DNA of 64,000 bases from the sequence record OV876907; one strand, written 5' to 3'. The stretch comes from Escherichia phage UGJNEcP3. Both the position numbers and the translations under genes were made by a program. The notes under the pieces were generated by a model that was given only the letters and a program-made list of their open reading frames with translations, did no database searches and was not told the origin of the DNA. Shown piece by piece: positions 12,457 through 59,680 of this stretch. The first letter of the stretch is position 1. Each line of letters opens with the position of its first letter.

Positions 12457-12472
12457 TACGAAAGTATTAAAT

Positions 12473-12480: not shown

Positions 12481-12498
12481 TCTTTAAAGGAGAAAAGT

Positions 12499-13424: not shown

Positions 13425-13465
13425 AATATTCTCTTCAATTCAGTACGTCATTATCTGATAGGGCT

Positions 13466-13494
13466 ATATTAACATATCCTTAGGGATTGTAAAC
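13466..13494 (-). promoter_or_regulatory. early promoter for asiA
   Basis: GTTTAC(13489-13494), 17 bp, TAATAT, then AGCCCTATCAGA transcribed box. Confidence 0.55.
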
Positions 13495-13638: not shown

Positions 13639-13727
13639 AGCCTTTTCCCTTATGTTTCTGCTTACGCTTGGACTCTTTAAAATTTTTCTTCTTGTCCTTA
13701 TGAACAGAAGCCTTATTGAAATCGTGC

Positions 13728-14009: not shown

Positions 14010-14506
14010 TAGTAAAGGTCCTCAGAGTAAAGTTCTTTTTCACTACCACCGCGTTCAATACGAACTTGATTAGCATACGTTGCAATAATCATTGCTTCTT
14101 CACGAGTCCAATAATTTGAATATTGGTCAATAAAACCTTGGTCGTCACCACAAACATGGTCGGACACAAGTTTATCACTTACTTGGTCAAGCACTTCTGC
14201 CATATCTTTGGAATAATGACGTGCACCCGGAATAATAAGTGTTCCACCGTCTTTTAACTTAAAGCGATTGGCTGCACATACAATTCGACGTTGGTATTTT
14301 TCATTGTTATTCCAATGTGCAATCTGCCAACAGATTTCAGGAACCTCTTCTAAAACATCCTCTTCCGAATATTCAGTGTAATCACCGTAGGCTCGTAATT
14401 TAGCTGCAAGACTTTCAGGTGTCTCACGAGAAAGGGCTTTATCCAACAAGGCCATACGGTCTTTAAAGGATAATTCTTTACCTTTTAATGGATTCATTTG
14501 AACCAT
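14009..14506 (-). CDS. hypothetical protein (165 aa)
   Basis: compact early-strand ORF in arn-motA interval; no motif recognised. Confidence 0.6.
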
Positions 14507-14823
14507 CCTTTAACACGTTGCCATAAAGTTTTCTGTTGGGCTTTGTTAACACCTATTGAACGAATAACTGGTTGTGATTCCTGGTATTCTTTGTAGTCTG
14601 CTTTATAGACTTCATAAGCGGCAGGAACAAAAGTGCTGATTGCGGCCATGAAATTCTTGCGAATTCCCATAGAAGCTTCAGAACCACCACGGATGATTAG
14701 GTATTTACCCGCTTTAATCTTAACAATAGTGCCGAGATAAGCGCCGTGGTACCAAATATCCCAACCTTCTTGAGTAGGTTCTACACAACGACGAAGTTCA
14801 TTAACAATATTCAGCTTGTTCAT
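14494..14823 (-). CDS. hypothetical protein (109 aa)
   Basis: compact early-strand ORF overlapping its neighbour by 13 nt. Confidence 0.6.
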
Positions 14824-14837
14824 AATAATTTCCTCAG

Positions 14838-15473
14838 TCAGATAATTGCGTTGGTTACGGTTTTGATAACTTCAGATGATACGTTTTGGAAGTCGATATA
14901 AGTATTCTTACCACCAGTCTTAATCTTAACATCAAGATTCAAGGAAGTAAACACTTGTTTTTCTTTATCAGTCATATTATAACCGAAAATACGCATCATT
15001 CCATCACGACGGACTTCGATTTGACGAATACCATTGGTACGTTTAGCGAATCGAACTTCAAGGTTGCTACGGTTTTCAGCAATTTCACGAATCTCGATAC
15101 GGTCTTCTAATAAAGCTTTAACTTCATCAGCCAGTGTTACCATTTCAGGAGTAACACCACGTGAACTGCGCGTTTTACGTTTTTCCAACATCTCTGGAGC
15201 ATTTTCAGAAGCGAACAGGTCTGCAGCTTTTTGAACGAGGTCCATTGCTTCACCTGTAGCCACTAAACCATCACCGGATTTTTCGATGAATCCTTTCTTA
15301 ATCAATACACCGATGTTAGAGTTAACTACCGCAGCACTAAATTGCTCATTCAGGGCTTCACGGACTTCGCCTGAAGTGATGAAGTTATGCTTGATGATAT
15401 GTACTAAGATTGAAGCAGTTTTTTCATTCAGGGCGTCTTCAGAAGCTTTGATGATATAAGTAATTTTAGACAT
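14838..15473 (-). CDS. motA: middle-transcription activator MotA
   Basis: 211 aa; MSKxTYIIKAS..LNEKTA...SNIGVLIKKG...KSGDGL matches T4 MotA (memory). Confidence 0.9.
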   Translation of the reverse strand: MSKITYIIKASEDALNEKTASILVHIIKHNFITSGEVREALNEQFSAAVVNSNIGVLIKKGFIEKSGDGLVATGEAMDLVQKAADLFASENAPEMLEKRKTRSSRGVTPEMVTLADEVKALLEDRIEIREIAENRSNLEVRFAKRTNGIRQIEVRRDGMMRIFGYNMTDKEKQVFTSLNLDVKIKTGGKNTYIDFQNVSSEVIKTVTNAII

Positions 15474-15504
15474 TTTGTATCTCCGATAACCATTTATTTG
15501 ATAG

Positions 15505-15540
15505 GTCTATAGTATCATGTTTAAAGCAGATGTAAACACT
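15505..15540 (-). promoter_or_regulatory. early promoter for motA
   Basis: GTTTAC(15532-15537), 17 bp, caTGaTACTAT, then AGACCTATCAA box. Confidence 0.6.
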
Positions 15541-15554
15541 TTTTCACTAAACCC

Positions 15555-15576
15555 AAAAAAGGAACCCGAAGGTTCC
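15555..15576 (-). terminator. intrinsic terminator hairpin (UUCG loop + T-run)
   Basis: GGAACC-UUCG-GGUUCC then TTTTTT on minus strand, right after the micro-ORF stop. Confidence 0.6.
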
Positions 15577-15681
15577 TTACTTTTTAAAGTGAGCTGCTAT
15601 TAAACCTATAGCTAGGCCTGTGGCCAGGCCTAGGATAATAGCAAAGATACAGAGTAACAAGAACTCGACTCCAAGGCTCAT
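15577..15681 (-). CDS. 34-aa hydrophobic micro-protein coupled to gene 52
   Basis: ATG overlaps gene 52 stop (ATGA); MSLGVEFLLLCIFAIILGLATGLAIGLIAAHFKK is one TM helix. Confidence 0.45.
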   Translation of the reverse strand: MSLGVEFLLLCIFAIILGLATGLAIGLIAAHFKK

Positions 15682-17057
15682 AGAGACTCCAAATCTTTAA
15701 CATACTCAGTTACAACATCAGTGGTTTTCCAATATTGATGCTCTTCTTTCTTAGCCTTGGCTTCGAGGGCCAGTTTCTTGGCTTCGTCAGAAGTGATATG
15801 GAAAATGTTCATGGCCACTAGTTTATCGGCATATTCGCCATAGACTTTATTACCGGTCAATTCTTCGGTTAAAACCTTACGGGTCTTACCTTGGATAACC
15901 ACTACACCATCAATAACATCTTTGATAAATGTGGCTTTAGCCAATGCTAGTTTGAAAGCTTCTTCGGTTTCGATGATTTTACCATCAATACGTTTTTGTA
16001 CAAAGGTCTTACGGACCTCAACGAAATCACGAATCAGTTCAACTACATCTTCGTAAACCTTAAGTTTACCTTTTTCATTAATGACGGTCAGGTTTTGTGA
16101 ACGACGTTCGATTAACCCGAAGTCCTTCATGAGTTTTTCGTGTTTCTTATCTTCATCGGTAGGCAATTCATATTCTTTACGAATCTTAACCTTGAAGCCA
16201 AAACCGTTCTCGTCACAGTCATCATCATATGTGATGTACCCTTTGTCTTCCAGAGGGTCTAATACCTTAGCCACATATGTTTCACGGTCATATTTGTATG
16301 GGATTTCCGTGATATGCATTTGGGTTCGAGATGTGAACTTATACGTTCCACGAATCTCATAACTACCTGGTTCAATTTCAACAACTTCACCTCGGAATTC
16401 AGGATAAGCCACTTTAGGCTTGGTTACTCGTTTTTCCTGAAGAACTTGCAATACAGCTTTCTTAACAGAATCAAAACTATGAGGAAGAATATTAGTTGCA
16501 TAACCAGTTGCAATACCGGAAATACCATTAAGAAGAACAGTAGGAATAATAGGCAGATAAAAAGCCGGTGGCTTATGTTCGACATCCGCATGAACCGGAG
16601 CATATTCTGTGTCCTTATAAACTTTTGCAAAGTTACTTCCGATACGAGCAAAAATATAACGAGAGGCTGCAGCCTTTTGAACCAATCGAGAACCGAAGTT
16701 ACCTTGACCGTCTAACAATGGATAGTTGTTGTTCCATGTGTTAGCCATCAAAGCCCCTGCTTCCTGAGCAGAACCTTCACCATGGTGATATCCAAGGTCG
16801 GCTACGCCACCAGCAATAGAAGCTAGTTTGTGGAATTTTTCTTTATTACCACGAGCCATATCAAGACAACGAGCAACTACAAAACGTTGTACAGGTTTAA
16901 AGCCGTCAATCATATTTGGAATGGCTCGGTTTTCGACAGTATACATTGCATAAGCCAATGCTTCGTTGTCGATAATACTTTTTAAGTCACGACGAGTGAA
17001 AGAATCATCGTAAACATCTAAAGCCTGTTTAAAAAGGGTATCAATTACATCAGCCAT
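15678..17057 (-). CDS. 52: DNA topoisomerase II medium subunit gp52
   Basis: 459 aa; GyrA-type N-terminus (AMYTVENRAIPNMIDGFKPVQR), T4 gp52 size and position. Confidence 0.9.
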   Translation of the reverse strand: MADVIDTLFKQALDVYDDSFTRRDLKSIIDNEALAYAMYTVENRAIPNMIDGFKPVQRFVVARCLDMARGNKEKFHKLASIAGGVADLGYHHGEGSAQEAGALMANTWNNNYPLLDGQGNFGSRLVQKAAASRYIFARIGSNFAKVYKDTEYAPVHADVEHKPPAFYLPIIPTVLLNGISGIATGYATNILPHSFDSVKKAVLQVLQEKRVTKPKVAYPEFRGEVVEIEPGSYEIRGTYKFTSRTQMHITEIPYKYDRETYVAKVLDPLEDKGYITYDDDCDENGFGFKVKIRKEYELPTDEDKKHEKLMKDFGLIERRSQNLTVINEKGKLKVYEDVVELIRDFVEVRKTFVQKRIDGKIIETEEAFKLALAKATFIKDVIDGVVVIQGKTRKVLTEELTGNKVYGEYADKLVAMNIFHITSDEAKKLALEAKAKKEEHQYWKTTDVVTEYVKDLESL

Positions 17058-17061
17058 AATT

Positions 17062-17202
17062 TTACCATACTAGTGAATGAATAGCCATAATAACATCGGA
17101 AATAAAAAGCACAACTTGGATAAGTCCGAACATTACTCCATAATACAGTGCTACTAATAAAGCAGCAAGGGCTACTGAGTAGCCCAAGATTTTCTTAATC
17201 AT
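17062..17202 (-). CDS. 46-aa membrane micro-protein (52.1 position)
   Basis: ATG 17200-17202 overlapping ac-like stop; hydrophobic. Confidence 0.45.
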   Translation of the reverse strand: MIKKILGYSVALAALLVALYYGVMFGLIQVVLFISDVIMAIHSLVW

Positions 17203-17356
17203 TTTTAATCATCTTAAGTAAACCGACAGAAGTAGAAAGAACCCAGCCAATAAACAGAAAACTTAAGAATACCGGACCAGGGGCCCACACACCTAAAAAG
17301 AAGCAAACTGAACAGACTATAGCCATAATAAGTTCAATAAAAACTAGGATAACCAT
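17195..17356 (-). CDS. ac: Ac-like 53-aa membrane protein
   Basis: ATG 17354-17356 with GAGGA SD; two hydrophobic segments; position between stp and 52 as T4 ac. Confidence 0.5.
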   Translation of the reverse strand: MVILVFIELIMAIVCSVCFFLGVWAPGPVFLSFLFIGWVLSTSVGLLKMIKND

Positions 17357-17366
17357 ATTTTCCTCA

Positions 17367-17444
17367 TTAGCGTCCGAAGACGCCTTTAGTTTTAAGATTG
17401 TTACGATAGAACTGCATCACATGCTCGTTATGGAAATTACTCAT
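17367..17444 (-). CDS. stp: Stp peptide (25 aa)
   Basis: ATG overlaps ndd stop (TAATG); [25 protein letters not shown] matches T4 Stp as recalled. Confidence 0.75.
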
Positions 17445-17893
17445 TAGTATGCCTGCAGAATGAATTTAAAGTTATCAGCCAACATGCGGTTCATTTCTTC
17501 CAGTGTCTGGAGGTCGGAACTATGATTGCGGGTGAAAGCCATTGCAATTTGACCCTTACCAAAACCGGTGGTCAGAGGTTTCATCTTAGAAGCTGGTACA
17601 TAAAGAACTTCATACACAACACCGTTCACTGCCATGGTGCGAGCTGATTGAGAACGTTTCTTACGAATGTTAGCCACGATGCCATCAAGACCTTGGGCCG
17701 AACGTTGATTACCGACATAAAAACGAGCAGCTACGACACGAGAATCAGCTCCACCTTTAACAAAGAAGTAGAAGCCTGGCTGAGCAGAGATTTCTTTAGA
17801 AGGTTTACCATTTTGGTATTCACCGTTCTTAACATAAGCAACAGTAGTAGCACCAGCAGACAGAACGTTACGGCGAGTCATATAAGTATTCAT
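17444..17893 (-). CDS. ndd: nucleoid disruption protein Ndd
   Basis: 149 aa; ...[10 protein letters not shown]...[25 protein letters not shown]...[20 protein letters not shown] matches T4 Ndd (memory). Confidence 0.9.
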
Positions 17894-17942
17894 ATCAATT
17901 TCCTCAGTAGATTAATGTTTTGTTATCCGGTCAACGAGAACC

Positions 17943-17971
17943 ATTATAACATGATTCTCGAGGTTGTAAAC
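17943..17971 (-). promoter_or_regulatory. early promoter for ndd
   Basis: GTTTAC(17966-17971), 17 bp, caTGtTATAAT; inverted repeat CGAGAA/TTCTCG flanks -10. Confidence 0.55.
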
Positions 17972-18315
17972 TATTTTTGTAGCTGTTCTAAAATAAATCC
18001 GCTCGTATAAAAAGAAGCATTATAAACCTTGTTCAGCGGGTTCAAAGCCTGTCCGTAAGTATCACGTAGTTCTTTGATAACATTTTCATAGCTTACATAA
18101 TAACCACTATGATAATACGGGTCCATACTCATACGAAATTTAATAAACCGATAAAATCCTGTTTCTGGGTCTTGAACGAAAACGAAATCGGCACCCATCA
18201 TAATTTTTGAATCTACGCCAGGAATCATACTTTGATTGAATGCCACCGATGCATCCTGAAGGCTGAGTTGTTTAAAGAACATTACCTTAGCATTACCAAA
18301 AAAGATTTTAGACAT
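17971..18315 (-). CDS. hypothetical protein (114 aa from internal ATG)
   Basis: ATG 18313-18315 with AAGGAAA SD after upstream stop; track ORF extends to 18339. Confidence 0.6.
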   Translation of the reverse strand: MSKIFFGNAKVMFFKQLSLQDASVAFNQSMIPGVDSKIMMGADFVFVQDPETGFYRFIKFRMSMDPYYHSGYYVSYENVIKELRDTYGQALNPLNKVYNASFYTSGFILEQLQK

Positions 18316-18325
18316 GATAATTTCC

Positions 18326-18538
18326 TTATTCAGCGTCAACAGAAATAGCCATCAGTTCATCAACAGTAAGACACTGTACACTAGGTCCTACACAAAAGCG
18401 CTTAGTTGAATCATAAAGGTCCGTGGCATTAACAGGTTGTAATTCGGTCCCAACTTGCAAAGGAGAAATGCGAATCAGTTGTTGACCGTTATGTAATACA
18501 AAGCTCTCGCCGACTACCACATCTTTAAAAAGTTTCAT
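18326..18538 (-). CDS. hypothetical protein (70 aa)
   Basis: start moved to MKLFKD ATG with GAGG SD overlapping the micro-ORF stop. Confidence 0.55.
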   Translation of the reverse strand: MKLFKDVVVGESFVLHNGQQLIRISPLQVGTELQPVNATDLYDSTKRFCVGPSVQCLTVDELMAISVDAE

Positions 18539-18548
18539 AATATTTTCC

Positions 18549-18659
18549 TCAGAAGTTAAAGAATACACGTACATGGTCAATCATAAAAACGATTGGGAAA
18601 ATGCTCAATACCATTAACAACACAAACATGTTCCAAATTGCTTTAAGTAAGTTTTTCAT
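18549..18659 (-). CDS. 36-aa hydrophobic micro-protein
   Basis: ATG 18657-18659 with GGAG SD just after an early promoter; MKNLLKAIWNMFVLLMVLSIFPIVFMIDHVRVFFNF. Confidence 0.45.
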   Translation of the reverse strand: MKNLLKAIWNMFVLLMVLSIFPIVFMIDHVRVFFNF

Positions 18660-18679
18660 AATCATCTCCATTAGTTGAT

Positions 18680-18716
18680 AGGTCTATAGTATCATGATTA
18701 ATGGAGATGTATACCG
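18680..18716 (-). promoter_or_regulatory. early promoter (GTATAC -35 variant)
   Basis: GTATAC, 17 bp, caTGaTACTAT, AGACCTATCAACTAA box. Confidence 0.55.
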
Positions 18717-18804
18717 ATTTATGCCAATTTCCACAACAATAAACTAAAACATACGCAAATCACTGGGATACAGGCCATCCAAATAAGGCACCACGTTTTG
18801 CTAC

Positions 18805-19071
18805 TCAAAACACCACCTCTTTTATCTCAATCAATCCCCTGTACAATGCAGTGCGGAGGTCATAAAGAATATCTATGCCGTCAACATTATCCAGTTTTCC
18901 ATCAATAAGCTTTTCTAAATCTTCCTTTGATGCGATTAAAGGACGGAGAAATTTACATTCAGAAAGAGATAACTCTGTAGTAACATCATCACCTTCACCT
19001 GACGCGTCATACATAGCGGCAACAACCATGCCTGTAACTTTGTGTTTAGCGTAATATAATTTGATATCCAT
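18805..19071 (-). CDS. hypothetical protein (88 aa)
   Basis: start at MDIKLYY ATG with GAGGAG SD; track N-extension is translated promoter. Confidence 0.6.
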   Translation of the reverse strand: MDIKLYYAKHKVTGMVVAAMYDASGEGDDVTTELSLSECKFLRPLIASKEDLEKLIDGKLDNVDGIDILYDLRTALYRGLIEIKEVVF

Positions 19072-19127
19072 TTTGTTCTCCTCATTAGTTGATAGGAAGA
19101 TAGTAACACCATCCATGGCATTATAAC

Positions 19128-19355
19128 TTAAGCAATGGAATGTTTTGGATGCTGTTTAGCCCAACCTACTAAAAATTCCCAATACTTTTCGATAGAACCG
19201 TAAAGATTAATTACCGTAGGAGTGGTAACTTCAGTCCAATCTTTTTGAACATTACCTGTTTTAATATTGGTAAGCTTGTGAAACACTTTACCGTTCTCAA
19301 ATTTATATTCTTCGATTTTACGATTGATTGCTTTAACAGAAGTAATAGAAGTCAT
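19128..19355 (-). CDS. hypothetical protein (75 aa)
   Basis: start at MTSITSV ATG with GAGAGGAAA SD; track N-extension is translated promoter. Confidence 0.6.
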   Translation of the reverse strand: MTSITSVKAINRKIEEYKFENGKVFHKLTNIKTGNVQKDWTEVTTPTVINLYGSIEKYWEFLVGWAKQHPKHSIA

Positions 19356-19369
19356 AATATTTTCCTCTC

Positions 19370-35859: not shown

Positions 35860-36102
35860 TTAAACTCCAGGTGATACAGGAGTCGGCGTGAACATTGCTG
35901 CGTTCTTGGTCTTCCAGTCAGCAGCATCAGTCACTACGGTTGAGTAGGCTGCAACGGCCGAAGGAAAAGTCTGATAATGAGCATTGGCAATACGGTGCTC
36001 GTTCGAATAGATTTCAAACGGAACTGATACTTCAACACCTTTAACTTCTTTACCTTCACCAGCTGGATGCGTAAAGGTTTTTATATTAACGAAACCACCC
36101 AT
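35860..36102 (-). CDS. soc: small outer capsid protein Soc
   Basis: 80 aa; ...VNIKTF......HYQTFPS..AAYSTV... matches T4 Soc (memory). Confidence 0.85.
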   Translation of the reverse strand: MGGFVNIKTFTHPAGEGKEVKGVEVSVPFEIYSNEHRIANAHYQTFPSAVAAYSTVVTDAADWKTKNAAMFTPTPVSPGV

Positions 36103-36133
36103 AATTAACTCCTTTGTTGTTTAATTACAGGTG

Positions 36134-36141
36134 TATTTATA
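36134..36141 (-). promoter_or_regulatory. T4-type late promoter TATAAATA for soc
   Basis: minus-sense TATAAATA ~30 bp upstream of soc ATG. Confidence 0.65.
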
Positions 36142-36144
36142 TCA

Positions 36145-36666
36145 TTAATAACCACGGTCCTGACGAGCAAAGTTCTCGGCATTTTTCAGATAATACAGTT
36201 TAAAGATTTCTTCTGCAGTAAGTCCAAGACCCTGGAACATATTCAGAACAAAGTGCAGAATATCAATCATTTCGAATTTAATTTCGAGTTGGTCTTCAGG
36301 AGACAACTCGTCGATACGACGATTACGGAATTCAGCATGCTGAGCTTTCCAAGGCTTCCACACACTAGAGGCTGCTTTTTCACCGTTGGACATACCGCCA
36401 AGAGAAGTCAGCAGTTCACGGAATTCATCGTCAATATAATCTTTCTGGTTGCGAAGCCAATCGACGACTTGACCTGCGGTAGCCAGTTCATCAGGATTAG
36501 AGTTGAATTCTGATTTTTCGGTAGCCAGGCGAACCTGTAAAGATTTCTGCATATCAAGCATAACTTGCAGAGGGTCTTTATCTTCATGAATCAGAGCATT
36601 AAAATAAGCTTCCTCAGCTTTATCAACACCAGAAATCAAACCACTACATTCGTTAAAAAATGCCAT
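36145..36666 (-). CDS. 56: dCTPase/dUTPase (MazG-like) gp56
   Basis: 173 aa; size, position (between soc and 61) and helical NTP-pyrophosphatase character. Confidence 0.8.
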   Translation of the reverse strand: MAFFNECSGLISGVDKAEEAYFNALIHEDKDPLQVMLDMQKSLQVRLATEKSEFNSNPDELATAGQVVDWLRNQKDYIDDEFRELLTSLGGMSNGEKAASSVWKPWKAQHAEFRNRRIDELSPEDQLEIKFEMIDILHFVLNMFQGLGLTAEEIFKLYYLKNAENFARQDRGY

Positions 36667-36670
36667 TATA

Positions 36671-37327
36671 TTATTTCCTATTAAAGTTTTCTATCATTCG
36701 TCGATAACAAATATCAGGATATCCATTATCAACAGCTATTTTATTAAATTTGGTGCGTTTAGGTTTATTATTGTAAACCCATAATTCATAAAGCATATCG
36801 TAACTATTCCATATTTCTCCACGCCTAGGATTTGGCAAACCATATCGAGGGGAATCTTTACCACTAAATCTTCCTTTTCTAGCTTTACTCATATTGGCCT
36901 TGGCTTCATCAGATATAATTTTATCTTTATGAGCCAGGCGCATTTTGGCTTTAGTTTCTTCAGGAGTTTTCATCCCTCTAATCCAGGAAGGTTTACCAAA
37001 CATCGGGTTATTTTTTCCCGAAAATGCTTTAGCGTTATTTTCTCTTAACGTGGCTATAGTTCTACTAGTTAATTTAACTCCTTTATTATATCTCATTAAA
37101 TTAACAGCATAATGTAGACCTTTTACTTCGGGATATATTTTTGTTAAAAGCCTATGAGCTACAAAGTGTTCTCTTGGCAATAAAGCAACTAAATTGTTTT
37201 TATCATCAGAACCATTCATACATCTAGGTATAACATGGTGTTCTTCCGTATAATACGATAAAGACCGCTTAGAACCTCTTAATTTTCCTTTAGATATTAA
37301 TTCCTGGTATATTTTTTCGTAATTCAT
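36671..37327 (-). CDS. HNH homing endonuclease with NUMOD3-like repeats
   Basis: 218 aa; HNH core EEHHVIPRCMNGSDDKNNLVALLPREHFVAH; repeated GKNNPMFGK / GKDSPRYG modules; between 56 and 61. Confidence 0.8.
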   Translation of the reverse strand: MNYEKIYQELISKGKLRGSKRSLSYYTEEHHVIPRCMNGSDDKNNLVALLPREHFVAHRLLTKIYPEVKGLHYAVNLMRYNKGVKLTSRTIATLRENNAKAFSGKNNPMFGKPSWIRGMKTPEETKAKMRLAHKDKIISDEAKANMSKARKGRFSGKDSPRYGLPNPRRGEIWNSYDMLYELWVYNNKPKRTKFNKIAVDNGYPDICYRRMIENFNRK

Positions 37328-37329
37328 GG

Positions 37330-37360
37330 GATAATTGTATCATTAATTTGTAAAGCAAGT
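37330..37360 (-). promoter_or_regulatory. possible MotA-dependent middle promoter for the HNH gene
   Basis: minus-sense TTGCTTTA MotA-box-like motif ~12 bp upstream of TACAAT. Confidence 0.4.
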
Positions 37361-37368
37361 TATAAATA
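37361..37368 (+). promoter_or_regulatory. late promoter TATAAATA for plus-strand small ORF
   Basis: exact TATAAATA 22 bp upstream of ATG 37390. Confidence 0.5.
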
Positions 37369-37389
37369 TTAATTTAACAGGAGGATAAC

Positions 37390-37590
37390 ATGGGCAGTAT
37401 TTTTTACCAAATCTGGAAATTGGCCGAAAAGAAAGACAAGAAAATGATGTTAGGTTTTCTTGCGCTAGACGTATTCCTTTGGAATCTTTTAGTAGTTCCT
37501 GTAGCCGCTAGCCAAGGGGTAATTTTACCAGCGGTTACAATGGAACACGTATTAAGCATAATTGGATTCTTTAGCGGAGTTCCTGTCTAA
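37390..37590 (+). CDS. small membrane protein (66 aa), opposite strand to neighbours
   Basis: AGGAGG SD 6 nt before ATG; hydrophobic segments; own late-promoter motif. Confidence 0.5.
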   Translation: MGSIFYQIWKLAEKKDKKMMLGFLALDVFLWNLLVVPVAASQGVILPAVTMEHVLSIIGFFSGVPV

Positions 37591-38615
37591 ATTTTAGAAT
37601 ATTTTGAAAGCCTCATTTTTGCCATTAACCCTTGGGCTATATTAGCTTTCATATACGCCAATATATCATTTATATCAGCTTTATCTTTCATAACCATATC
37701 ATTTATATCTTTAGAAGGCCATGGAGCCTTGTCCCAGAATAGGACCCTTTCGCCGGCATCAACTAATCGTTGCATACGCTTAATTGTGTCAGGATGACGG
37801 GGTTCATTGTCCATTACCCAAGCACGAGTTTCTTTACATGGAACCATAGCCAAGTCCAACGACCCACCAGTAATTGCTATTGCATTAGGTACGAATAATG
37901 AATCAATAGGACCTTCCATTACCCACACCAATTGACGTTCGTCAACTGTATCCATTCCATATATTTTTGTAGCTTGGTCATGAGCTTTTATTGTAATATA
38001 TTTTTGTGGAGCATCTTTACGCAAGGCTCGGCCCTGAAAACTTTCAATTTGTTTATTCTTATTGAAAATTGGAATAACCAAACGTGGTTCAGGCATTTCT
38101 TTGGAATAGGTCCCTGGATTCACAGAGTTAACTAATGCTGGCCATTCTTTAGTAAACCATAACCGATTCCATTTATTTTCAGGAATGCACCGCAGAGTTA
38201 CATACTTAATAATAGGATGGTCTTTCGGCATTCTATCTAATCGTTCACAGAAATTAAGCTTTTCAATGACAGGCATCTTAGCTTTAATTTTTTCAGATAT
38301 CTCCACCTTAGGTGCAGCTTGTCTCCCAAACGATTGCTCTTTATGTTTCTCAAGAATATATTCGCGATATAAATCAGGCTCATATTCGTATAGGTACTTC
38401 TTAATTCCTGCCGAATAATCACAGTTAAAACAGTGCAGCATTACGGAGCCATCATTAGCTGGATAGGCCCAAAAACGAGCTTTGTTCTCATCTTTTAGGG
38501 AGTCGCCACATACACGACAACGACAGTTTAATTTAAAATCACTACCGGTTACTTGTCTGAATTTAGGTTGGTAATTCAAGGCACGTACAGCAAATTCTCT
38601 ATCGACATATGACAT
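37587..38615 (-). CDS. 61: DNA primase gp61
   Basis: 342 aa; N-terminal zinc ribbon CRCRVCGDS...HCFNC; size identical to T4 gp61. Confidence 0.9.
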   Translation of the reverse strand: MSYVDREFAVRALNYQPKFRQVTGSDFKLNCRCRVCGDSLKDENKARFWAYPANDGSVMLHCFNCDYSAGIKKYLYEYEPDLYREYILEKHKEQSFGRQAAPKVEISEKIKAKMPVIEKLNFCERLDRMPKDHPIIKYVTLRCIPENKWNRLWFTKEWPALVNSVNPGTYSKEMPEPRLVIPIFNKNKQIESFQGRALRKDAPQKYITIKAHDQATKIYGMDTVDERQLVWVMEGPIDSLFVPNAIAITGGSLDLAMVPCKETRAWVMDNEPRHPDTIKRMQRLVDAGERVLFWDKAPWPSKDINDMVMKDKADINDILAYMKANIAQGLMAKMRLSKYSKI

Positions 38616-49519: not shown

Positions 49520-49559
49520 AGGAAGGATAATACCACGTTCCATGTGGTATGTAAACACT
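49520..49559 (-). promoter_or_regulatory. early promoter for imm-like gene
   Basis: GTTTAC(49551-49556), 18 bp, gTGgTATTAT, CCTTCCTAACAACTAC box. Confidence 0.5.
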
Positions 49560-52270
49560 TAAAAGTCAAACATGTCAAATAATGTTGCTTTTTTCTCGTA
49601 GTCGATTTTAGCAGACTCGGTGAAACCGGTAAGAGGTTTGATAAAGGTCTTTTGGAACAATACGTTGTAGTCCATCCAACGGAGGACTTGGTCACGAATC
49701 TGAACTGGAAGTTCAATACCTGATGGCCATGCCATACAAGCTTCACCGAACGGGTTGCCTTCTTTAAGTGGAAGTACATATACCTTTTCACCGTCGACGA
49801 TACGTGGCATAGTCAAATCACCAGCAGAAGCACGCATGTAAGCTAAGCAACCTTTGATGTGATACGGGCATTTAGAACCAGGGAATCCACCTTCATTATA
49901 TTTCTCGATGTTGTTAGCACTGGATACTGCTGCAATGCTTACATAGTTTAGTTCGTTAAATTCCTTATTAAACTGTTTGAAATATTCTTGCAAAGAGGCC
50001 TCGCCTTCCTGAAGCATACGACGGATACATTCTTTCAGAGCTTTCTGAACTGCTTTAGGTGTACTTGATTTCTGAGTTTCGAGACCCATGATTTTCAAGT
50101 GTGGTTCAGCATAACGAGTACCTTCCATGTCCCAAACGTTCAGTGCATAACGTTTCTTGCCTGTCCAGAATCCACCAAGACCTTTAGAACCAAGTGGAGG
50201 TCCTGCGATAGCTTCTCGGTCCATGAACATCAAGTGCTGTTTGTTGTTCATGTATTCACACATCTCACGGAAGCCTGCATCAATAGCAGGTTCCATACGT
50301 TCACGTGCAAATTTATCTAAGAAGTCGACCCAGTGGTTAGTATCACGGAATTTTTCTTCGCCAACTTTATTGATGATGGCATCTGCCTTAACATAAATGG
50401 AGTCAGTATCACCATAGAGCACGAACTTCTGGTTTTCAGTCTTGCACACTCTATTCAGATATTCGTTAACCTTACGTTCAATCCATTGGAGGGCCATTTG
50501 ACCAAACAGTGTGATTGCAGTTGCGTTCCTGAGGTCATAATAACGGAACCATACGTTACCAAGTGCACCATAAAGGGAGTTGATAAGCAACTTACGGTTA
50601 ATCTGAGCAGTGTTACCTGCAACTTCAGTGAGCTCGGCTTTCTTCAACATTTCTCTTAAAGAAGGCCCTGACAGTGCTTTAATCTGGGCTTTGATTTCGT
50701 CAGAGAAGTCAAAACGATAATCGATATCTAGTGGACTATCAACTGAGAGATTAGGATTTTCCAATGCTTCTTTAATTAACTCACCATTACGTTGAGCTGC
50801 AAGCATGTAACCTTTATGTTCTTTACGCTGCAAGAATACCTTGGTGATTTCTGTCGGAATCACACCTTCACGGTCTTTATAATACATCATGCCGTTAGGA
50901 GAGCAACTGTAGGTGTCGCTAGGACGCTGAGCAGTTCCGGCAATATATTCATGTATCGGTGCGTTGGCGAATGTCCCTGCGATGGTCTCTGGGCTTATAT
51001 TCACTTGCCGAATGATACTCGGGTACAGAGATGTAAGGTCAAAACTCATTACATATTTGTAAGCGTTAGGAATAGGTTCCTTAACGAAAGCACCAGGATA
51101 AGGTTGGACCACGTGTGAACGACCCTGTGGAATTACCTTGCCTTGTTCTTTAAGACTATTAAAGATAATAGCGTCCCAAGTCTTAATTGGACTGAACACC
51201 GACTGAATCTGCATCTTGGCATAATAACCCATGTCCAAACTCAGAAGAATGAACTGACGTTTCATATCAATCTGCACTACACGATATACGTCGATAATGT
51301 TATAGGAAATATATCGTTGGTGGTTCGTCTCACGTAACTTAGAGATTGGACCATCATATTTCAACTTACCTACTTTCAATTCATATTCAGAAACATAATC
51401 CAGAGAATAAGAAGGCTGGTTGGTAAAGCTGAATTTTTTATACAGGTCGATATAATCCAGAACAGAGATACCGAACAGTGTAATAATTTCACGAGCACCG
51501 TACATGTTCTCAATAACTTTAACACGAGTTTTACGATGCGGGCTTAATCGCTTAGCAGTGTTCTCACCGAACAGATTTTTCAGACGGTTATAAACGTACG
51601 GCACGTCAAATGACTCAACGTTCCACCCAGTCAAAATCACAGGAGTTTTCTGTTGCCAGAAATTCAGGTACTCAAGCATCATTTCTTCTTCAGAATTAAA
51701 CGAAAGATAAACGATTTTGTCAATGATTTCCTGTGGAACTTCGTCACCACCTTCGTCTTGGAGTTTCTCAGCGATTTTAATCGACCACTCTTCAACAGTA
51801 CCATAAGGCGAAACTAAAAGGTCGAATACATAGAATTTATCGTCAATCGAGTCGTAGTGGGTAATGGCATCGATAGGATGTTTAGCCTGAGCTGGTTCAG
51901 GGAATCCATCAGGAGATGTTACCTCGATGTCGAAGTTAGCAATACGAATCTTAGAAGAATCATATTTGATTTCTTTACGATAGGTATCAGACAAATAGGC
52001 TAATTTATAGTCGTCCATACCCAGGGCTTCGAGACCCATATCGTCCATACGTTTCATCCATTGGGATGCATCACGCATAGAGTCGAATTCTTTCTTAACA
52101 CAACCCTTACCATAGATATCAATGTATTTTACGGCTTGCTCTGGATTGGCATGCATAAACATTGTAGGCTTGTATGGAACTTCACGACTACGTTCGTTAC
52201 CATTTTTATCGATGTAACGTTCGAGAATATTATCACCGATTTGTTCGACTGTCAAATAGAATTCTTGCAT
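49559..52270 (-). CDS. 43: DNA polymerase gp43 (family B, with 3'-5' exonuclease)
   Basis: 903 aa from ATG 52268-52270 (AAGGAAA SD; track start 52330 is TTG); Exo I FDIEV, motif A DLTSLYPSI, motif C YGDTDS; N-terminus closely resembles RB69 gp43 (memory). Confidence 0.93.
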   Translation of the reverse strand: MQEFYLTVEQIGDNILERYIDKNGNERSREVPYKPTMFMHANPEQAVKYIDIYGKGCVKKEFDSMRDASQWMKRMDDMGLEALGMDDYKLAYLSDTYRKEIKYDSSKIRIANFDIEVTSPDGFPEPAQAKHPIDAITHYDSIDDKFYVFDLLVSPYGTVEEWSIKIAEKLQDEGGDEVPQEIIDKIVYLSFNSEEEMMLEYLNFWQQKTPVILTGWNVESFDVPYVYNRLKNLFGENTAKRLSPHRKTRVKVIENMYGAREIITLFGISVLDYIDLYKKFSFTNQPSYSLDYVSEYELKVGKLKYDGPISKLRETNHQRYISYNIIDVYRVVQIDMKRQFILLSLDMGYYAKMQIQSVFSPIKTWDAIIFNSLKEQGKVIPQGRSHVVQPYPGAFVKEPIPNAYKYVMSFDLTSLYPSIIRQVNISPETIAGTFANAPIHEYIAGTAQRPSDTYSCSPNGMMYYKDREGVIPTEITKVFLQRKEHKGYMLAAQRNGELIKEALENPNLSVDSPLDIDYRFDFSDEIKAQIKALSGPSLREMLKKAELTEVAGNTAQINRKLLINSLYGALGNVWFRYYDLRNATAITLFGQMALQWIERKVNEYLNRVCKTENQKFVLYGDTDSIYVKADAIINKVGEEKFRDTNHWVDFLDKFARERMEPAIDAGFREMCEYMNNKQHLMFMDREAIAGPPLGSKGLGGFWTGKKRYALNVWDMEGTRYAEPHLKIMGLETQKSSTPKAVQKALKECIRRMLQEGEASLQEYFKQFNKEFNELNYVSIAAVSSANNIEKYNEGGFPGSKCPYHIKGCLAYMRASAGDLTMPRIVDGEKVYVLPLKEGNPFGEACMAWPSGIELPVQIRDQVLRWMDYNVLFQKTFIKPLTGFTESAKIDYEKKATLFDMFDF

Positions 52271-52330
52271 TTCATTTCCTTTATAGACGAGTGATTGTCT
52301 TTTGTTTGTTGATGAATCATTATACTCCAA

Positions 52331-54521: not shown

Positions 54522-55220
54522 TTAGAACGAGTGGCTTGAGCCTGCTTCCATAGCCAATACATAAGAAGCTTGTGAACCTTCAAACTTGGCTGCGAAACGA
54601 GCATCCTGACCTTCACCACGAGCCCATAGCAATACATGGTAATCAGCCGGCATCATTTTCATATTGGTTTTGTTAATGATGAACTTAAAGTCAGGGCCAT
54701 CATGGTCTGCAACCACTAAGGAATACAATGGACGTGCCAGGTCCTTATCATCAACTTGTTTGTAGCCATTGATTACAATTTTACCATTGTCTACAGTAAT
54801 AGCAAATGTATCAATACCCAGACCGGAGGACACACGCATCAACTGTTGGTAATCTTCGGCTTTAAGGTCAAAAATAACTTCAGCCACTGGGAACGGAATA
54901 GCTTTGCTTGGGAATGCTATTGTGCTTGGGTCGGCAATAGGCCACTTAATAGTTGAACGTTGGTCTTTAATAATTAAGGTGGTTTGGTCTTCACTTACCG
55001 AAACTTCAGCACTTTCAGATACTAAAGACAGAATACTTAAGAAGCCGTTCAAATCATAAATTGCAGCTTCGATATCAAAGGTATCACTTACAGTAGCTTC
55101 ACCATAACTTGCACCTGTTACTGAACGGGTTAGAATAGTGTTACCAGGTTTAAGCATGATACCTGGGTTAATACCGGAGAAGTTTTTCAGAATGTTCAGA
55201 GTTTCTTTAGAGAATTTCAT
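54522..55220 (-). CDS. 45: sliding clamp gp45
   Basis: 232 aa; ...NFSGINPGIMLK...FINKTNMKM.PADY.LLLWA.G...AKFEG matches T4 gp45 (memory). Confidence 0.9.
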   Translation of the reverse strand: MKFSKETLNILKNFSGINPGIMLKPGNTILTRSVTGASYGEATVSDTFDIEAAIYDLNGFLSILSLVSESAEVSVSEDQTTLIIKDQRSTIKWPIADPSTIAFPSKAIPFPVAEVIFDLKAEDYQQLMRVSSGLGIDTFAITVDNGKIVINGYKQVDDKDLARPLYSLVVADHDGPDFKFIINKTNMKMMPADYHVLLWARGEGQDARFAAKFEGSQASYVLAMEAGSSHSF

Positions 55221-55244: not shown

Positions 55245-55658
55245 TTAAGCAATAACGATCATTTGTTTACGAATGGATTCAGGCAGAGATTCAATATACT
55301 CTGGAATCTGGGAAGCAACAATAGCACCGGCTTCAAGCAGTTGTTCGTCAAAATCTACGCAATAATCATCTTCGAGACGTTCAGAACCATCACGGTCGAT
55401 AACCAGTTTAGCACCTGCGGCCAGCGAATCGTTATAATGACGACGCATGATTTCTACCCACTTATCGGATACGTCGTTATCAATGATACCGTAGAGCATG
55501 AACTTGGTTTCTTGTGGAAGAGACTGCAGACGACGTGCAGAGTCGGTATCAATATTCAGTACCCATGATTTACGAATACGGTTTTGATTGTGTGGGTTGG
55601 AATCGGTACGAATGGTTTTAACTTGGATATCTTTAACAGTAATAGCGTTAGCAAACAT
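55245..55658 (-). CDS. rpbA: RpbA-position protein (RNA polymerase-binding protein in T4)
   Basis: 137 aa from ATG 55656-55658; directly downstream of 45 as T4 rpbA. Confidence 0.55.
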   Translation of the reverse strand: MFANAITVKDIQVKTIRTDSNPHNQNRIRKSWVLNIDTDSARRLQSLPQETKFMLYGIIDNDVSDKWVEIMRRHYNDSLAAGAKLVIDRDGSERLEDDYCVDFDEQLLEAGAIVASQIPEYIESLPESIRKQMIVIA

Positions 55659-55714
55659 AATATTTTCTCTCATTTGGTTGGTAAATGTATTATAAATCTA
55701 TATTTTAAAGCAAT

Positions 55715-55906
55715 TTAATCAAAGTACTCGTAGACAAACCATGCCGGATTTCTATTTGACATGATTTTATCATATTCTGACTTAAAAGCATTTCGGAGAT
55801 ATTCTTCAGTAACAAGATGCTCATCTCCAGAGAAGTTGTTAACTAAAACGTATCTCTTTATTTCTGGAAAGGCCAACAAATGCTGGCCTGTTATAAAATC
55901 ACTCAT
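55715..55906 (-). CDS. hypothetical protein (63 aa)
   Basis: early-strand ORF abutting the GIY-YIG gene. Confidence 0.5.
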   Translation of the reverse strand: MSDFITGQHLLAFPEIKRYVLVNNFSGDEHLVTEEYLRNAFKSEYDKIMSNRNPAWFVYEYFD

Positions 55907-56589
55907 TATGAAGCATCCTTTAATTTACAATTATCAAAGTGCCATCGTTTCATAATGTTGTTAGAGCCAATTTTATCACAATATGGGCACTTTACAGTTG
56001 GTCTGCTTTTAGCTTTTGCAGATTGTTTGCTTTTCATAGCCTGTTTTGCTTCGTCAGACCTAGAATTAAGGGCTATAGAAATTTTATCCCTTGTTTCTTG
56101 GCTATGAGTTTTTCCGAACATAGGGTTGTTCTCAGGCAAATATGTACCATTTCTTATATTACTCTGACGAATTTTTTCTATATGTTCTTTAGATTTATTT
56201 CTTAGCTCTAGGCATTTAGATTTCTTTCTAGTTTTAAAAAGGTTTTCATAAAATGAATACGGTCTATTTTTAGCAGCTATACTCTGTTTAAGTCTGGTTT
56301 CCTCTTTTATAAAAGGTGCGGCATTACCTCCTAAAGAAATATTATATGTAAGAGGGTTCTTTATAAATTCCTCATTGACTATAATTCTTTCCATTTGGAT
56401 AGCCTCTTCTCTGGTATCAAAATTATAAAGTATTTCCTTTCTATGATTTTCCAAACCATATTTTTTAATAGAAGCTTTAATATATAAACCAGAGCCCATA
56501 TACGAATCTTTAATATTTTCAGTACTATGTATCCCTACATAGTACTTATTATTAACTAAATTTATTATTTTGTAAACAAGATGTCTCAT
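55906..56589 (-). CDS. GIY-YIG homing endonuclease (Seg-like) with NUMOD3-like module
   Basis: 227 aa; VYKIINLVNNKYYVGIHS...YMGSG (GIY...YIG core); ENNPMFGKTHSQETRDKIS; C-terminal CPYC; between 45/rpbA and 46. Confidence 0.8.
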   Translation of the reverse strand: MRHLVYKIINLVNNKYYVGIHSTENIKDSYMGSGLYIKASIKKYGLENHRKEILYNFDTREEAIQMERIIVNEEFIKNPLTYNISLGGNAAPFIKEETRLKQSIAAKNRPYSFYENLFKTRKKSKCLELRNKSKEHIEKIRQSNIRNGTYLPENNPMFGKTHSQETRDKISIALNSRSDEAKQAMKSKQSAKAKSRPTVKCPYCDKIGSNNIMKRWHFDNCKLKDAS

Positions 56590-58271
56590 TATTCTAATAC
56601 TGTAAAGCGGCCAACCTTCTTCATTTGTAAATGTTGTCCATACGATTGTGGGTCATGGTCTTTGTGTGAAATTATAAAGACATTAGAATCTTCCAAAGAA
56701 TTTATAATATTTGATACACCTTTAATACCTTCTGCATCAAAACTTCCATCAAAGACCTCATCAAGAATAAGAGTAGATATATTAATGCCTGAAACCTTTG
56801 AAGCAATATCTCGCCAGGTAAATAACAGAGCCACATCTATTCTAGACTTTTCACCTTCACTAAATGAAGCATAACTAAAGTCTTCGCGTCCACGCGACTT
56901 AATCGTCTCATTGAACTCTTCGTCAAGAGAAAAACTATAATCCGCCTCTAACATCTTCAAATAAGAATTTATTTGCTTATTAAAGATAGGAATGTATTTC
57001 TTAATAATGGAACCTTTAATACCAGTGTCCTTCAACATTTCTGTCAGAATTCCACGGTGATATTTTTCCATTACCAATGACGATTTGGTAGAGACGATTT
57101 TATCAAGCTCTGCTTGAAGCGTGGCAATCTCTTCGGCATTACTTACGAACTCTGCAGCCGCTTGGTCAATTAATACTTTAACCTTTTTAGCTTTCTCGAC
57201 AGCAGTAATGGCTTGCTGCTTATGAGTAGCTATCTGAGATTTAATAGCCAGCGCTTTATTACGTTGCTCGGTTACTTGGTCTTTAATAAGTTTGAGCTCT
57301 TGGTACTGCTCATTAATCTTATCCAAAGATTTTTGAAGCTCAAAGTTCTTATCCTTAATTTTAGTAAGGATGTTCCCATGTTCTTCCAATCCTTGCATAC
57401 ATGTAGGGCAGTGACCACCTGTTTCGTATAACTTAACCACCTTTGTAAAGGTTGCCATATCATTTTTGATTGCAAACCCTTTATTACTCAGGTCACTCAT
57501 GGAGTCGCTAGGGTCATCATCTACGATAACATTGAGTAATTCATCAGTCAGGAATTCTATGCTCGCTTTCGCAGTCCTGGCTTCTTTAACGAGCTCATCA
57601 TACATTAATTGTAGTCGTGCCGCATTCTCGCCGGATAATTTACGCTGACGCTCTTCGTTGTCATTATAAATTTTAATTTGCTGGGTAATAGAATCCTGTT
57701 TAACGTCTATCACCTGGATTTGGCTATTAGTCTCACGAATCAAAGATTTGTTCAACTTATCCATATCCGCTAATACAGAAACCTCTAAAAGGTCTTCCAC
57801 CAGCTTTCGACGCGCTGGGGTTGACAAACCCATGAAGGGGGTATACCCTGCCGTGCCAAGAACGACAATCTGTTTGAAGCTTGCATAGGACATTCCGATA
57901 AGCTGTTCAAATTCTGCTTGGAAGTCTTTACTGCTGGCAGATTCATCAAGACGTTCACCGCCACAAGAGATTTCAAAAACGTTCGGTTTTTGTCCGCGTT
58001 TGATATAGTATTCTTTGCCATCGTATTCCATCCACAGTTCGACCAAAAGGTCTTTCTTGTTACTTGAGTTAATCAACTGCCCTTTCTTAACATCACGAAA
58101 AGGCTTACCGAACAGAGCAAATGTTACAGCTTCAAGGAATGTTGATTTCCCTGCACCATTTTTACCAGTGACTAAGGTCTTTTGGACCTTATCAAGTTGG
58201 ATTGTAATGGGCTGCTGCCCGACCGACATAATATTTTTATACGTTACTTTCTTTAACTTAAAAGTCTTCAT
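56589..58271 (-). CDS. 46: recombination endonuclease subunit gp46 (Rad50/SbcC-like ATPase)
   Basis: 560 aa from MKTFKL ATG; Walker A GKNGAGKST, central coiled coil with CPTC hook, C-terminal LILDEVFDG. Confidence 0.9.
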   Translation of the reverse strand: MKTFKLKKVTYKNIMSVGQQPITIQLDKVQKTLVTGKNGAGKSTFLEAVTFALFGKPFRDVKKGQLINSSNKKDLLVELWMEYDGKEYYIKRGQKPNVFEISCGGERLDESASSKDFQAEFEQLIGMSYASFKQIVVLGTAGYTPFMGLSTPARRKLVEDLLEVSVLADMDKLNKSLIRETNSQIQVIDVKQDSITQQIKIYNDNEERQRKLSGENAARLQLMYDELVKEARTAKASIEFLTDELLNVIVDDDPSDSMSDLSNKGFAIKNDMATFTKVVKLYETGGHCPTCMQGLEEHGNILTKIKDKNFELQKSLDKINEQYQELKLIKDQVTEQRNKALAIKSQIATHKQQAITAVEKAKKVKVLIDQAAAEFVSNAEEIATLQAELDKIVSTKSSLVMEKYHRGILTEMLKDTGIKGSIIKKYIPIFNKQINSYLKMLEADYSFSLDEEFNETIKSRGREDFSYASFSEGEKSRIDVALLFTWRDIASKVSGINISTLILDEVFDGSFDAEGIKGVSNIINSLEDSNVFIISHKDHDPQSYGQHLQMKKVGRFTVLE

Positions 58272-58521
58272 CGTTATAAGCATCCTTGATGCATGATTCA
58301 GCCATATGAATTAATGTTTCTGGAGTATCATCTACCATTACATTAAAGCTAAATTCTACAGCCCAATCGGTAGCAACATAAACTTTAATAAGCTCGCCGG
58401 TATCACGAGTGCTCACGGCTTCAAACCAGAACTTAATTGTACTAGGTTGACCATCATCATCAATAACTATACAGTCGTGTTCCAGTTCAAGTCCCGATTT
58501 TTTGAATTCATCTAAAGTCAT
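58258..58521 (-). CDS. hypothetical protein (46.1 position)
   Basis: 87 aa between 47 and 46. Confidence 0.55.
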   Translation of the reverse strand: MTLDEFKKSGLELEHDCIVIDDDGQPSTIKFWFEAVSTRDTGELIKVYVATDWAVEFSFNVMVDDTPETLIHMAESCIKDAYNDEDF

Positions 58522-59540
58522 CGTGTAACCTCATTATAAAGTTGTGCAGCCATAGTCTTAAGGGCTTTAACATCGGCTTCAGTGTGGCCATCAGGAAGGG
58601 CATCGATATAATCATACATCATATCCAAGAGGGATTTAACTTCGTCTTCCTCTTCAGAATCATCAATATCAACACTATTATCTACCTTAGACACAATACG
58701 TAAAGAGTGAACAACCTTTTCAAGCTCTGATTCGAACTTAGTAAGACCGTCATCGATTTTATCGACTATAACACGAACTGCGATATTTGTAAAATCTTTG
58801 TAATCGATAGTCTCGTTAGGATAATGAATCTTACGATGCCAACAGGTTTCATTAATGATGAAATCCATTTTATGAGTTTCGGTATCGAAAATCCAGAAAC
58901 CACGAGGGTCGTTCTCATCGCCTGCAGTAAGGGTCCATGGCGTACCAATGTACTTGACGTTTGCTGCATCAGAAATGGTGTGGAAGTGGCCAGACCATAC
59001 TTGCTTATACTTCTTAAGGAAATCAGGTTCTAAACCATGTGATTTCATTCCTTTATAGAAATAGAAACCATTTAATTCCCAGTGGCCAATACAGAAATCT
59101 GCCGTGGTATTTTTGATATGGTCCATGATATCAGTGGTGTTTTCTTCACACATCCATGGAATCAAATCAATTTCGGTGCCATCAAAGTTAACCGTAGTAG
59201 GTTTCTCAATAACCTTGATATGGTCATATTTACCCAGAACTTCAGAAGCTGCGTTCGGCGTCAGGGTATTTTTGTAGTGGGCATCATGGTTACCAACGAC
59301 CGTATACATGGTAATGCCACTTTCTTTAAGCAAATCAGAGATTTCGCGAGCGAATTCCATACACTTATGGGTAATTGCTTTACGAACGTCAAAGATATCA
59401 CCGTATTGAATCCACACGGTAATACCATTTGCTTTAGAATAATTGATAGCGTCTTGGATACCTTGACGTTGGATATTTTGTACCCACACATCATCGGCCT
59501 TCACTCCAAGGTGCCAGTCACCTGTGTTTAATATTTTCAT
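58518..59540 (-). CDS. 47: recombination nuclease subunit gp47 (Mre11/SbcD-like)
   Basis: 340 aa from MKILNTGDWH ATG; phosphoesterase motifs GDWHLG, GDIFD, GNHD, GHWE, GHFH. Confidence 0.9.
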   Translation of the reverse strand: MKILNTGDWHLGVKADDVWVQNIQRQGIQDAINYSKANGITVWIQYGDIFDVRKAITHKCMEFAREISDLLKESGITMYTVVGNHDAHYKNTLTPNAASEVLGKYDHIKVIEKPTTVNFDGTEIDLIPWMCEENTTDIMDHIKNTTADFCIGHWELNGFYFYKGMKSHGLEPDFLKKYKQVWSGHFHTISDAANVKYIGTPWTLTAGDENDPRGFWIFDTETHKMDFIINETCWHRKIHYPNETIDYKDFTNIAVRVIVDKIDDGLTKFESELEKVVHSLRIVSKVDNSVDIDDSEEEDEVKSLLDMMYDYIDALPDGHTEADVKALKTMAAQLYNEVTR

Positions 59541-59680
59541 AAGCCGAGCACCGTTATCGCAATGCAAAATAAAATTATTGAGATGAACCCATCAGGAGTA
59601 GAAAAGAATCCTATCCAACAGGCTCGTGTGAATGTGTAGAATGCCATGAATAACACGACATATCCTAAAAGTAATTCCAT
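59537..59680 (-). CDS. 47-aa membrane micro-protein coupled to gene 47
   Basis: GAGGAG SD; MELLLGYVVLFMAFYTFTRACWIGFFSTPDGFISIILFCIAITVLGL; stop overlaps gene 47 ATG (ATGA). Confidence 0.45.
   Translation of the reverse strand: MELLLGYVVLFMAFYTFTRACWIGFFSTPDGFISIILFCIAITVLGL

Follow-up and report, generated by a model that had tools for sequence, protein, structure and literature searches.

I-TevI, the endonuclease of the td intron, carries its Cys4 finger inside the linker and doubles as a repressor. The free-standing enzymes SegA to SegG of T4 break DNA at specific sites, in many cases hundreds of bp away from their own gene, and leave 2-nt 3′ overhangs; after resection, the endonuclease-carrying genome serves as the template for repair, and flanking markers are co-converted (PMC2988022). 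T4 Seg enzymes also cause the exclusion of T2 markers (PMC2988022), and a 2026 paper describes T6 SegB as amplifying anti-defence loci (PMC13096335). In this study, we analyzed a stretch of 64,000 nucleotides (the window) and describe what is probably a free-standing homing endonuclease gene of the T4 Seg type in a JS98-like coliphage, spread by double-strand-break repair. That its product cuts DNA and homes is what we infer from the comparative evidence set out below.

From position 19363 on, the window is base for base the start of the record of Escherichia phage UGJNEcP4 (OV877765.1; window 19363 corresponds to record position 1), which is classified in Straboviridae, Dhakavirus, JS98 group; window 1..19362 is presumably the far end of this linear record, so that the window would run across the arbitrary ends of a circularly permuted genome. 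The open reading frame at 55906..56589, the coordinates given in a preliminary description of this DNA, lies on the minus strand, is intact, starts with ATG, ends with TAA and encodes 227 aa, and OV877765 already labels it ‘homing endonuclease’ (CAH1616662.1). All genes around it lie on the same strand and form a T4-type replication/recombination cluster: gene 43 (49559..52330, minus strand), then regA, 62 and 44, gene 45 (54522..55220), rpbA (55245..55673), gene 45.2 (55715..55906; Pfam Gp45_2, E 1e-27), the endonuclease gene itself, gene 46 (56589..58271; SbcC/Rad50-like, PHROG 77, E 3e-190) and, beyond it, gene 46.2 followed by gene 47 (58518..59567). The preliminary description had placed the insertion between rpbA/45 and 46, of which the gene 46 side stands, and the other neighbour is 45.2. 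It had also let the start codon merely abut the gene 46 stop; the two are indeed in contact, and direct reading of the sequence reveals that one base is common to both, in a TAATG overlap at 56587..56591 (minus strand). The endonuclease stop and the gene 45.2 start form the same TAATG overlap at 55904..55908 (minus strand). The gene is free-standing, sitting flush between genes 46 and 45.2 with both left intact, and lies inside neither an intron nor an intein. The only NCBIfam match, to a ‘group I intron endonuclease’ model, is below threshold (35 vs 56 bits); an intron-encoded origin was rejected, as no intron is present.

The match to PHROG 314 (‘homing endonuclease’, E 2.7e-50) and the 324 homologues at E ≤ 1e-5 in a collection of 5.8 billion proteins indicate that this is not a chance reading frame. 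Its N-terminal GIY-YIG catalytic domain (aa 1-94; 56308..56589, minus strand) reads MRHLVYKIINLVNNKYYVGIH, an LVY...YVG variant of GIY-(x10)-YIG of a type also found in T4 SegA-E. As a single sequence, the protein falls below threshold for both Pfam GIY-YIG (PF01541; 14.6 bits vs a cut-off of 22.6) and SegE_GIY-YIG (PF19835; 16.2 bits vs 25), and a single-sequence search of PDB sequences returned a chance match to thimet oligopeptidase only; matches to PF01541 or PF19835 are present in many of its homologues. Because the single-sequence Pfam scores are sub-threshold, the fold was shown by family profile and structure model instead. When 42 full-length homologues, each with 30-47% identity to the query, were aligned, both ends proved conserved and the middle variable, and within the first 90 residues Y6, Y17, G19, Y30, S33, E67 and N83 are invariant. 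The profile of these homologues matches the I-TevI catalytic domain (1LN0) with E 1.9e-5 and covers the whole domain, pairing Y6, Y17 and G19 with Y6, Y17 and G19 of I-TevI, E67 with the metal-binding glutamate E75, and N83 with N90. In the same alignment, the I-TevI segment with R27 is an insertion relative to this family. As T4 SegA-E share this gap, the missing Arg27 counterpart is weak evidence against activity. The AlphaFold model has a pLDDT of 96-98 over residues 1-80 and of 88 over residues 81-90, and presents the three-stranded sheet with helices of the I-TevI and UvrC N-terminal type. The preliminary description had made its reading depend on a GIY-YIG fold and had called the core canonical: the fold is detected by profile and by model alike, and the adjective is too strong for the sequence, whose matches to PF01541 and SegE_GIY-YIG are sub-threshold.

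The other half of the protein is built for DNA binding. A NUMOD3 motif, also anticipated in the preliminary description, occupies aa 133-171 (56077..56193, minus strand) in a helical linker; it passes the cut-off of PF07460 (32.5 bits vs 20.4, E 8e-8) and is modelled as helices by AlphaFold. At the C-terminus, aa 198-226 (CPYCDK...MKRWHFDNC; 55912..55998, minus strand) make up a beta-beta-alpha module in which C201, C204, H217 and C221 are invariant in the 42 homologues, within a terminal motif CPxCxK...RWHFDNC. AlphaFold renders this motif as two short strands and a helix, with a pLDDT of 91-95 over residues 201-220, and as modelled it is a CCHC zinc-finger-like module. None of the seven T4 Seg proteins (SegA-G) has this finger, and none gave a significant BLASTP match beyond residue ~110.

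Consequently, the likeness to the T4 Seg enzymes resides in the nuclease. Over residues 1-94, identity is 51% to SegD, 50.5% to SegB, 48% to SegC, 47% to SegE, 39% to SegA and 29% to SegF, with BLASTP E values of 4e-32 (SegD), 4e-29 (SegB), 2e-23 (SegC), 3e-22 (SegE) and 4e-18 (SegA), and the motif H-S-T...D-x-Y-M-G-S-G is common to our protein and SegD, SegB, SegC, SegE and SegA. The term ‘Seg-like’, used in the preliminary description, therefore fits the catalytic domain, where SegB, SegC, SegD and SegE are 47-51% identical, and does not extend to the DNA-binding C-terminal half, to which no T4 Seg is similar; SegD, for instance, has an I-TevI-like helix-turn-helix end in place of the CCHC finger end (CPxC...RWHFDNC) found here. 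As in the T4 Seg family, the gene is free-standing, of ~220 aa, inserted between conserved genes and sporadic among relatives. It differs from the T4 genes in its insertion site, the 46|45.2 junction, which in T4 is unused, and in that its activity is predicted. Compared with I-TevI (1LN0 / 1MK0), to which it is 22-27% identical, it is not intron-encoded, lacks an aligned counterpart of the Arg27 helix, has no helix-turn-helix, and carries its finger as a CCHC type at the extreme C-terminus.

The gene is compositionally foreign. Its G+C content is 30.1%, against a window mean of 39.2%, and only 0.3% of 684-bp windows are equally low; its GC3 is 23%. Both ends of the insert carry the 8-bp direct repeat ATAATGAG (window 56584..56593 and 55901..55910), and loss of one copy together with everything between would restore an intact TAATG overlap of 46 and 45.2. 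We rejected the repeat as evidence of a target-site duplication, since the two TAATG overlaps dictate five of its eight bases; it may be due to chance or be a trace of microhomology-mediated entry.

With regard to expression, no Shine-Dalgarno-like GGAG or GAGG was seen in the bases examined upstream of the endonuclease start, which suggests translational coupling to gene 46. For gene 45.2, AAGGA is found 9 nt before the ATG, within the endonuclease 3′ end. The T4 late-promoter box TATAAATA does not occur near the gene, and its five occurrences in the window are no more than expected by chance; in 55500..57300, 4 sigma-70-like sites were counted where 7.5 would be expected. On these counts of late boxes and sigma-70-like sites, a promoter of its own was rejected for the endonuclease gene. 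As neither a separate promoter nor a ribosome-binding site is evident, the gene is probably expressed at a low level, through translational coupling to gene 46, a conclusion that takes in the TAATG overlaps and the AAGGA as well; the arrangement also suggests that the insertion is neutral for the operon. The RNA fold around the start codon is unexceptional overall (z -1.68), bar one 11-bp hairpin. This dominant hairpin of the mRNA fold corresponds to a perfect 11-bp inverted repeat with a 4-nt loop (AGTACTATGTA-TCCC-TACATAGTACT) at 56521..56546 within the endonuclease ORF, 43 nt past the AUG, where the KYYVGIHST (YVG) motif is encoded.

Among 50,697 phage records, the gene is carried by UGJNEcP4 and UP19 only, with 100% identical proteins, and the next best match is at 39%, in Vibrio phage ValKK3. 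In the 5.8-billion-protein set, the endonuclease forms a cluster of its own, the next relative being 40% identical. An exact 29-mer scan of IMG/VR found no copy, and a degenerate-peptide scan of the same collection found only relatives of ≤38% identity over the full length. Our literature search retrieved no paper describing an endonuclease gene at the 46|45.2 junction and none mentioning UGJNEcP4. When occupancy of this junction was scored in the 40 records closest in the flanks, 31 were empty, JS98 and IME08 being so called by annotation and 29 further records by match length. A different insert of ~770 bp is present in 7 of the 40 records, representing five phages (Bp7, MX01, KIT01, FB and 04086, the last judged solely from match length). 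In JS98, genes 46 and 45.2 overlap directly as ATGA with nothing between them, and in T4 and RB3 the junction holds no gene, just a 55-bp spacer. The distribution is thus cassette-like, with two carriers, five phages with another endonuclease and the rest of the 40 empty, as are T4 and RB3; this is the pattern on which the preliminary description had staked a mobile element, as opposed to a universally present ORF. Relatives at 30-40% identity are scattered over many unrelated loci, in T4-like phages whose hosts include Vibrio, Aeromonas and Acinetobacter, which fits a mobile free-standing family. Within IMG/VR, 4 of 80 relatives lie within ~3 kb of a gp46 or gp47 homologue, none of them at the 46|45.2 junction; an association of the family with genes 46/47 was rejected, 4 of 80 being about what chance would give by a rough estimate for genomes of this size.

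The two carriers share more than the gene itself. Sliding identity and lists of differing positions delimit a tract of 1099 bp (55871..56969) that is 100% identical between the window and UP19 and has the appearance of a natural transfer (co-conversion) unit. It is made up of the 686-bp insert, ~36-41 bp of the 45.2 5′ end and ~365-380 bp of the gene 46 3′ end. In the flanks, the window differs by ~4-8% from both UP19 and JS98, and the UP19 backbone is JS98-like (97-100% identical in most flanking windows, with short patches at 88-93%). At the endonuclease block, the differences of UP19 from JS98 lie entirely between 55865 and 56952, and within the identical block the window and UP19 are both ~70% identical to JS98. 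Evidently, to judge from these comparisons, the endonuclease gene and a recoded piece of gene 46 were copied into a second phage. As in T4 homing, the endonuclease gene adjoins an essential gene and a flanking stretch is co-inherited, here as a 1.1-kb block; in T4 this is known from crosses and mapped cuts, whereas here the co-transfer of flanking sequence shows as a footprint in two natural genomes.

The gene 46 part of this unit is unusual in its own right. Identity, codon and GC3 comparisons define a recoded, low-G+C 3′ end of gene 46 (56592..56952, minus strand) that travels with the endonuclease gene. The last 378 bp of gene 46 in the window are 74% identical to JS98 and 73% to IME08, compared with 92-98% identity among all Dhakaviruses compared over the first 1305 bp. 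Against JS98, 48 synonymous and 22 amino-acid-changing codons were counted among the 125 of the patch, and 77 synonymous and 4 amino-acid-changing codons among the 435 of the rest of the gene. GC3 is 27% in the patch vs 41% in the rest of gene 46. The patch encodes the Walker B / H-loop end of the Rad50-like gp46 and, at the amino-acid level, looks closer to T4-type sequence; the nearest gene 46 3′ ends are those of FB (85%) and of Tequatroviruses (~79%). The low G+C shared by endonuclease gene and patch points to their joint arrival from a lower-G+C donor absent from the databases. As crossovers are unlikely in ~70%-identical sequence, the tract had to reach the end of the diverged patch. For the same reason, the asymmetry of the conversion tract was rejected as a guide to the position of the cut: with any cut position, crossovers within the patch would be blocked.

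Other signs of exchange are scattered through the region. A second tract nearly identical to UP19 spans window ~58024..58940, with one substitution (58665) and 95-98% identity to JS98, and contains no endonuclease gene. UP19 in turn has patches at window ~51650..51950 and 55250..55650, the latter falling in rpbA, that are 88-93% identical to JS98 and unlike the window too; these show frequent small-scale mosaicism in the gene cluster. Gene 46.1 is missing from the window and UP19 (a 213-bp gap) as well as from MX01 and KIT01, and is present in JS98, IME08, FB, Bp7, RB3 and T4.

Our preferred reading, homing by double-strand-break repair, would proceed as follows. In a mixed infection, the enzyme would make a staggered double-strand break in the endonuclease-less allele, by analogy with T4 SegA-G, with the gene 46 3′ end of empty-site phages or its vicinity as the most likely place. 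The recombination machinery of the phage would repair the resected break with the endonuclease-carrying genome as template, and the recipient would thereby acquire the endonuclease gene together with the recoded stretch of gene 46 next to it. This recoded segment would at the same time protect carriers from their own enzyme.

Homologous recombination is rampant in T4-like phages, and sharp mosaic tracts without an endonuclease gene lie nearby (58024..58940, and the UP19 patches at ~51650..51950 and 55250..55650), so that ordinary recombination could have moved the block. The gene would then be a passenger, inactive or no longer homing, and the 1.1-kb block a mosaic patch like others. The rarity of the gene agrees with this and might speak against homing, given that an efficient element would be expected in more than 2 of the ~50 related records; so does the lack of an aligned Arg27 equivalent, although the motif is just as Arg-less in active T4 Seg enzymes. 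Against a passenger, the ORF is intact and keeps all family-invariant nuclease and finger residues, and there are 0 substitutions in 1099 bp between phages whose flanks are ~5% different. Moreover, this is the only patch in the region that pairs an insertion with a tract ~30% diverged from JS98. On balance, we consider a passenger unlikely.

It is more doubtful still that the phage itself makes use of the nuclease, either as a weapon in competition, through exclusion of the markers of co-infecting relatives by cuts in their gene 46, or as a promoter of recombination or amplification. Such a role would suit a gene that is translationally embedded in a replication/recombination operon, with the 46 to 45.2 coupling left intact, and whose presumed target encodes an essential Rad50-like recombination nuclease, and the T2 marker exclusion by T4 Seg enzymes provides a precedent (PMC2988022). 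However, the gene is absent from most Dhakaviruses and is therefore not needed, exclusion is in the known cases a by-product of homing and no separate mechanism, and the sequence offers nothing that would separate this use from selfish homing. We regard it as very improbable that the nuclease scaffold is dead and the protein a regulator that binds specific DNA sequences. Its two DNA-binding modules, NUMOD3 and the zinc finger, and the 11-bp perfect hairpin in its own mRNA would be in keeping with the kind of repressor role known for I-TevI, but the catalytic Tyr, Tyr, Glu and Asn are all kept and family-invariant, the gene is distributed like a mobile cassette, and a conserved operator did not turn up.

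Homing into this junction, which we favour, also has to be seen against the other element found there. In Bp7, FB, MX01 and KIT01, a 238-aa ORF is annotated at the 46|45.2 junction on the opposite strand. The Bp7 and FB copies (2462..3178 of each compared locus segment), which we compared at the protein level, encode an HNH (Mob-like) endonuclease (PHROG 655, E 2.6e-68) that repeats the finger module of our protein two to three times, as two CPHC...RWHFDNC fingers and a third, variant one. The HNH gene, present in Bp7, MX01, KIT01, FB and probably 04086, thus shares with the Seg-like gene the junction, a diverged gene 46 3′ end of its own and the CPxC...RWHFDNC finger, the terminal finger of FB being identical to the Seg-like one at 22 of 33 positions. 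It differs in an unrelated nuclease domain, its opposite orientation with intergenic spacers of its own, and its length of ~770 bp, and it has no nucleotide similarity to the Seg-like gene. By these comparisons, the 46|45.2 junction is a hot spot for two unrelated nuclease families sharing one finger module, and the gene described here, a Seg-type nuclease joined to a finger shared with a rival HNH element, is a rare member of a well-known kind.

The gene 46 3′ ends may be tied to the occupant of the junction. Between genera, the 3′ end is the better conserved one (for JS98 vs RB3, 75% compared with 67% at the 5′ end), and the two empty-site alleles are 95.5% identical. The endonuclease-adjoining alleles form separate classes that are only 71-85% identical to each other: that of Bp7, MX01 and KIT01 (97-98% identical among themselves, 80-83% to empty alleles and 71-72.5% to the window), that of the window and UP19, and that of FB (85% to the window). 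The FB HNH gene is that of Bp7 over its first ~430 bp (92-99%), and at FB ~2899..3500 the finger end and the adjoining gene 46 end diverge from Bp7 together, with 56-82% identity; this may reflect co-variation of the DNA-binding end with its target region, or a natural recombinant. The pattern fits, short of proving, that the gene 46 end holds the recognition or cleavage sites of whatever endonuclease occupies the junction. We tentatively go one step further, to a possibility that we rate somewhat below even: the junction may be a contested landing site at which GIY-YIG and HNH enzymes replace each other, each linked to its own synonymously recoded Rad50-like ATPase motifs in the gene 46 end as an immunity determinant, with endonuclease pressure diversifying that otherwise conserved part of an essential gene and with FB as a natural recombinant.

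A mobile endonuclease of another kind occurs elsewhere in the window. The preliminary description had counted the GIY-YIG gene as a second, independent one, and its counterpart is readily found in an ORF of 218 aa at 36671..37327 (minus strand) that combines HNH and NUMOD3 and is ‘MobE-like’ (PHROG 655, E 2e-54). It is placed between gene 56 (36145..36666) and the primase gene 61 (37587..38615). Coverage of window 36100..37700 reaches 80% or more in only 9 phage records, which makes this ORF, too, cassette-like. At its position, the GenBank record annotates just a 303-bp ‘hypothetical protein’ (record 17309..17611).

For the annotation of the genome, our findings change nothing, as the gene carries the homing endonuclease label already. 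Their bearing is on the biology of the group. Much of the mosaicism of T4-like phages, and of the exclusion of one by another, is attributed to free-standing homing endonucleases, for which the direct evidence comes mostly from T4 × T2 laboratory crosses. Here, two natural isolates keep a whole transfer unit, with base-pair boundaries, on two different backbones. If the junction is indeed a contested site, FB would represent an HNH gene with an altered DNA-binding end beside a gene 46 end that is 85% like the Seg-linked one. UGJNEcP4 or UP19, set against JS98, Bp7 or FB, thus offers a compact and tractable system in which to study recoding as immunity and the competition for a site.
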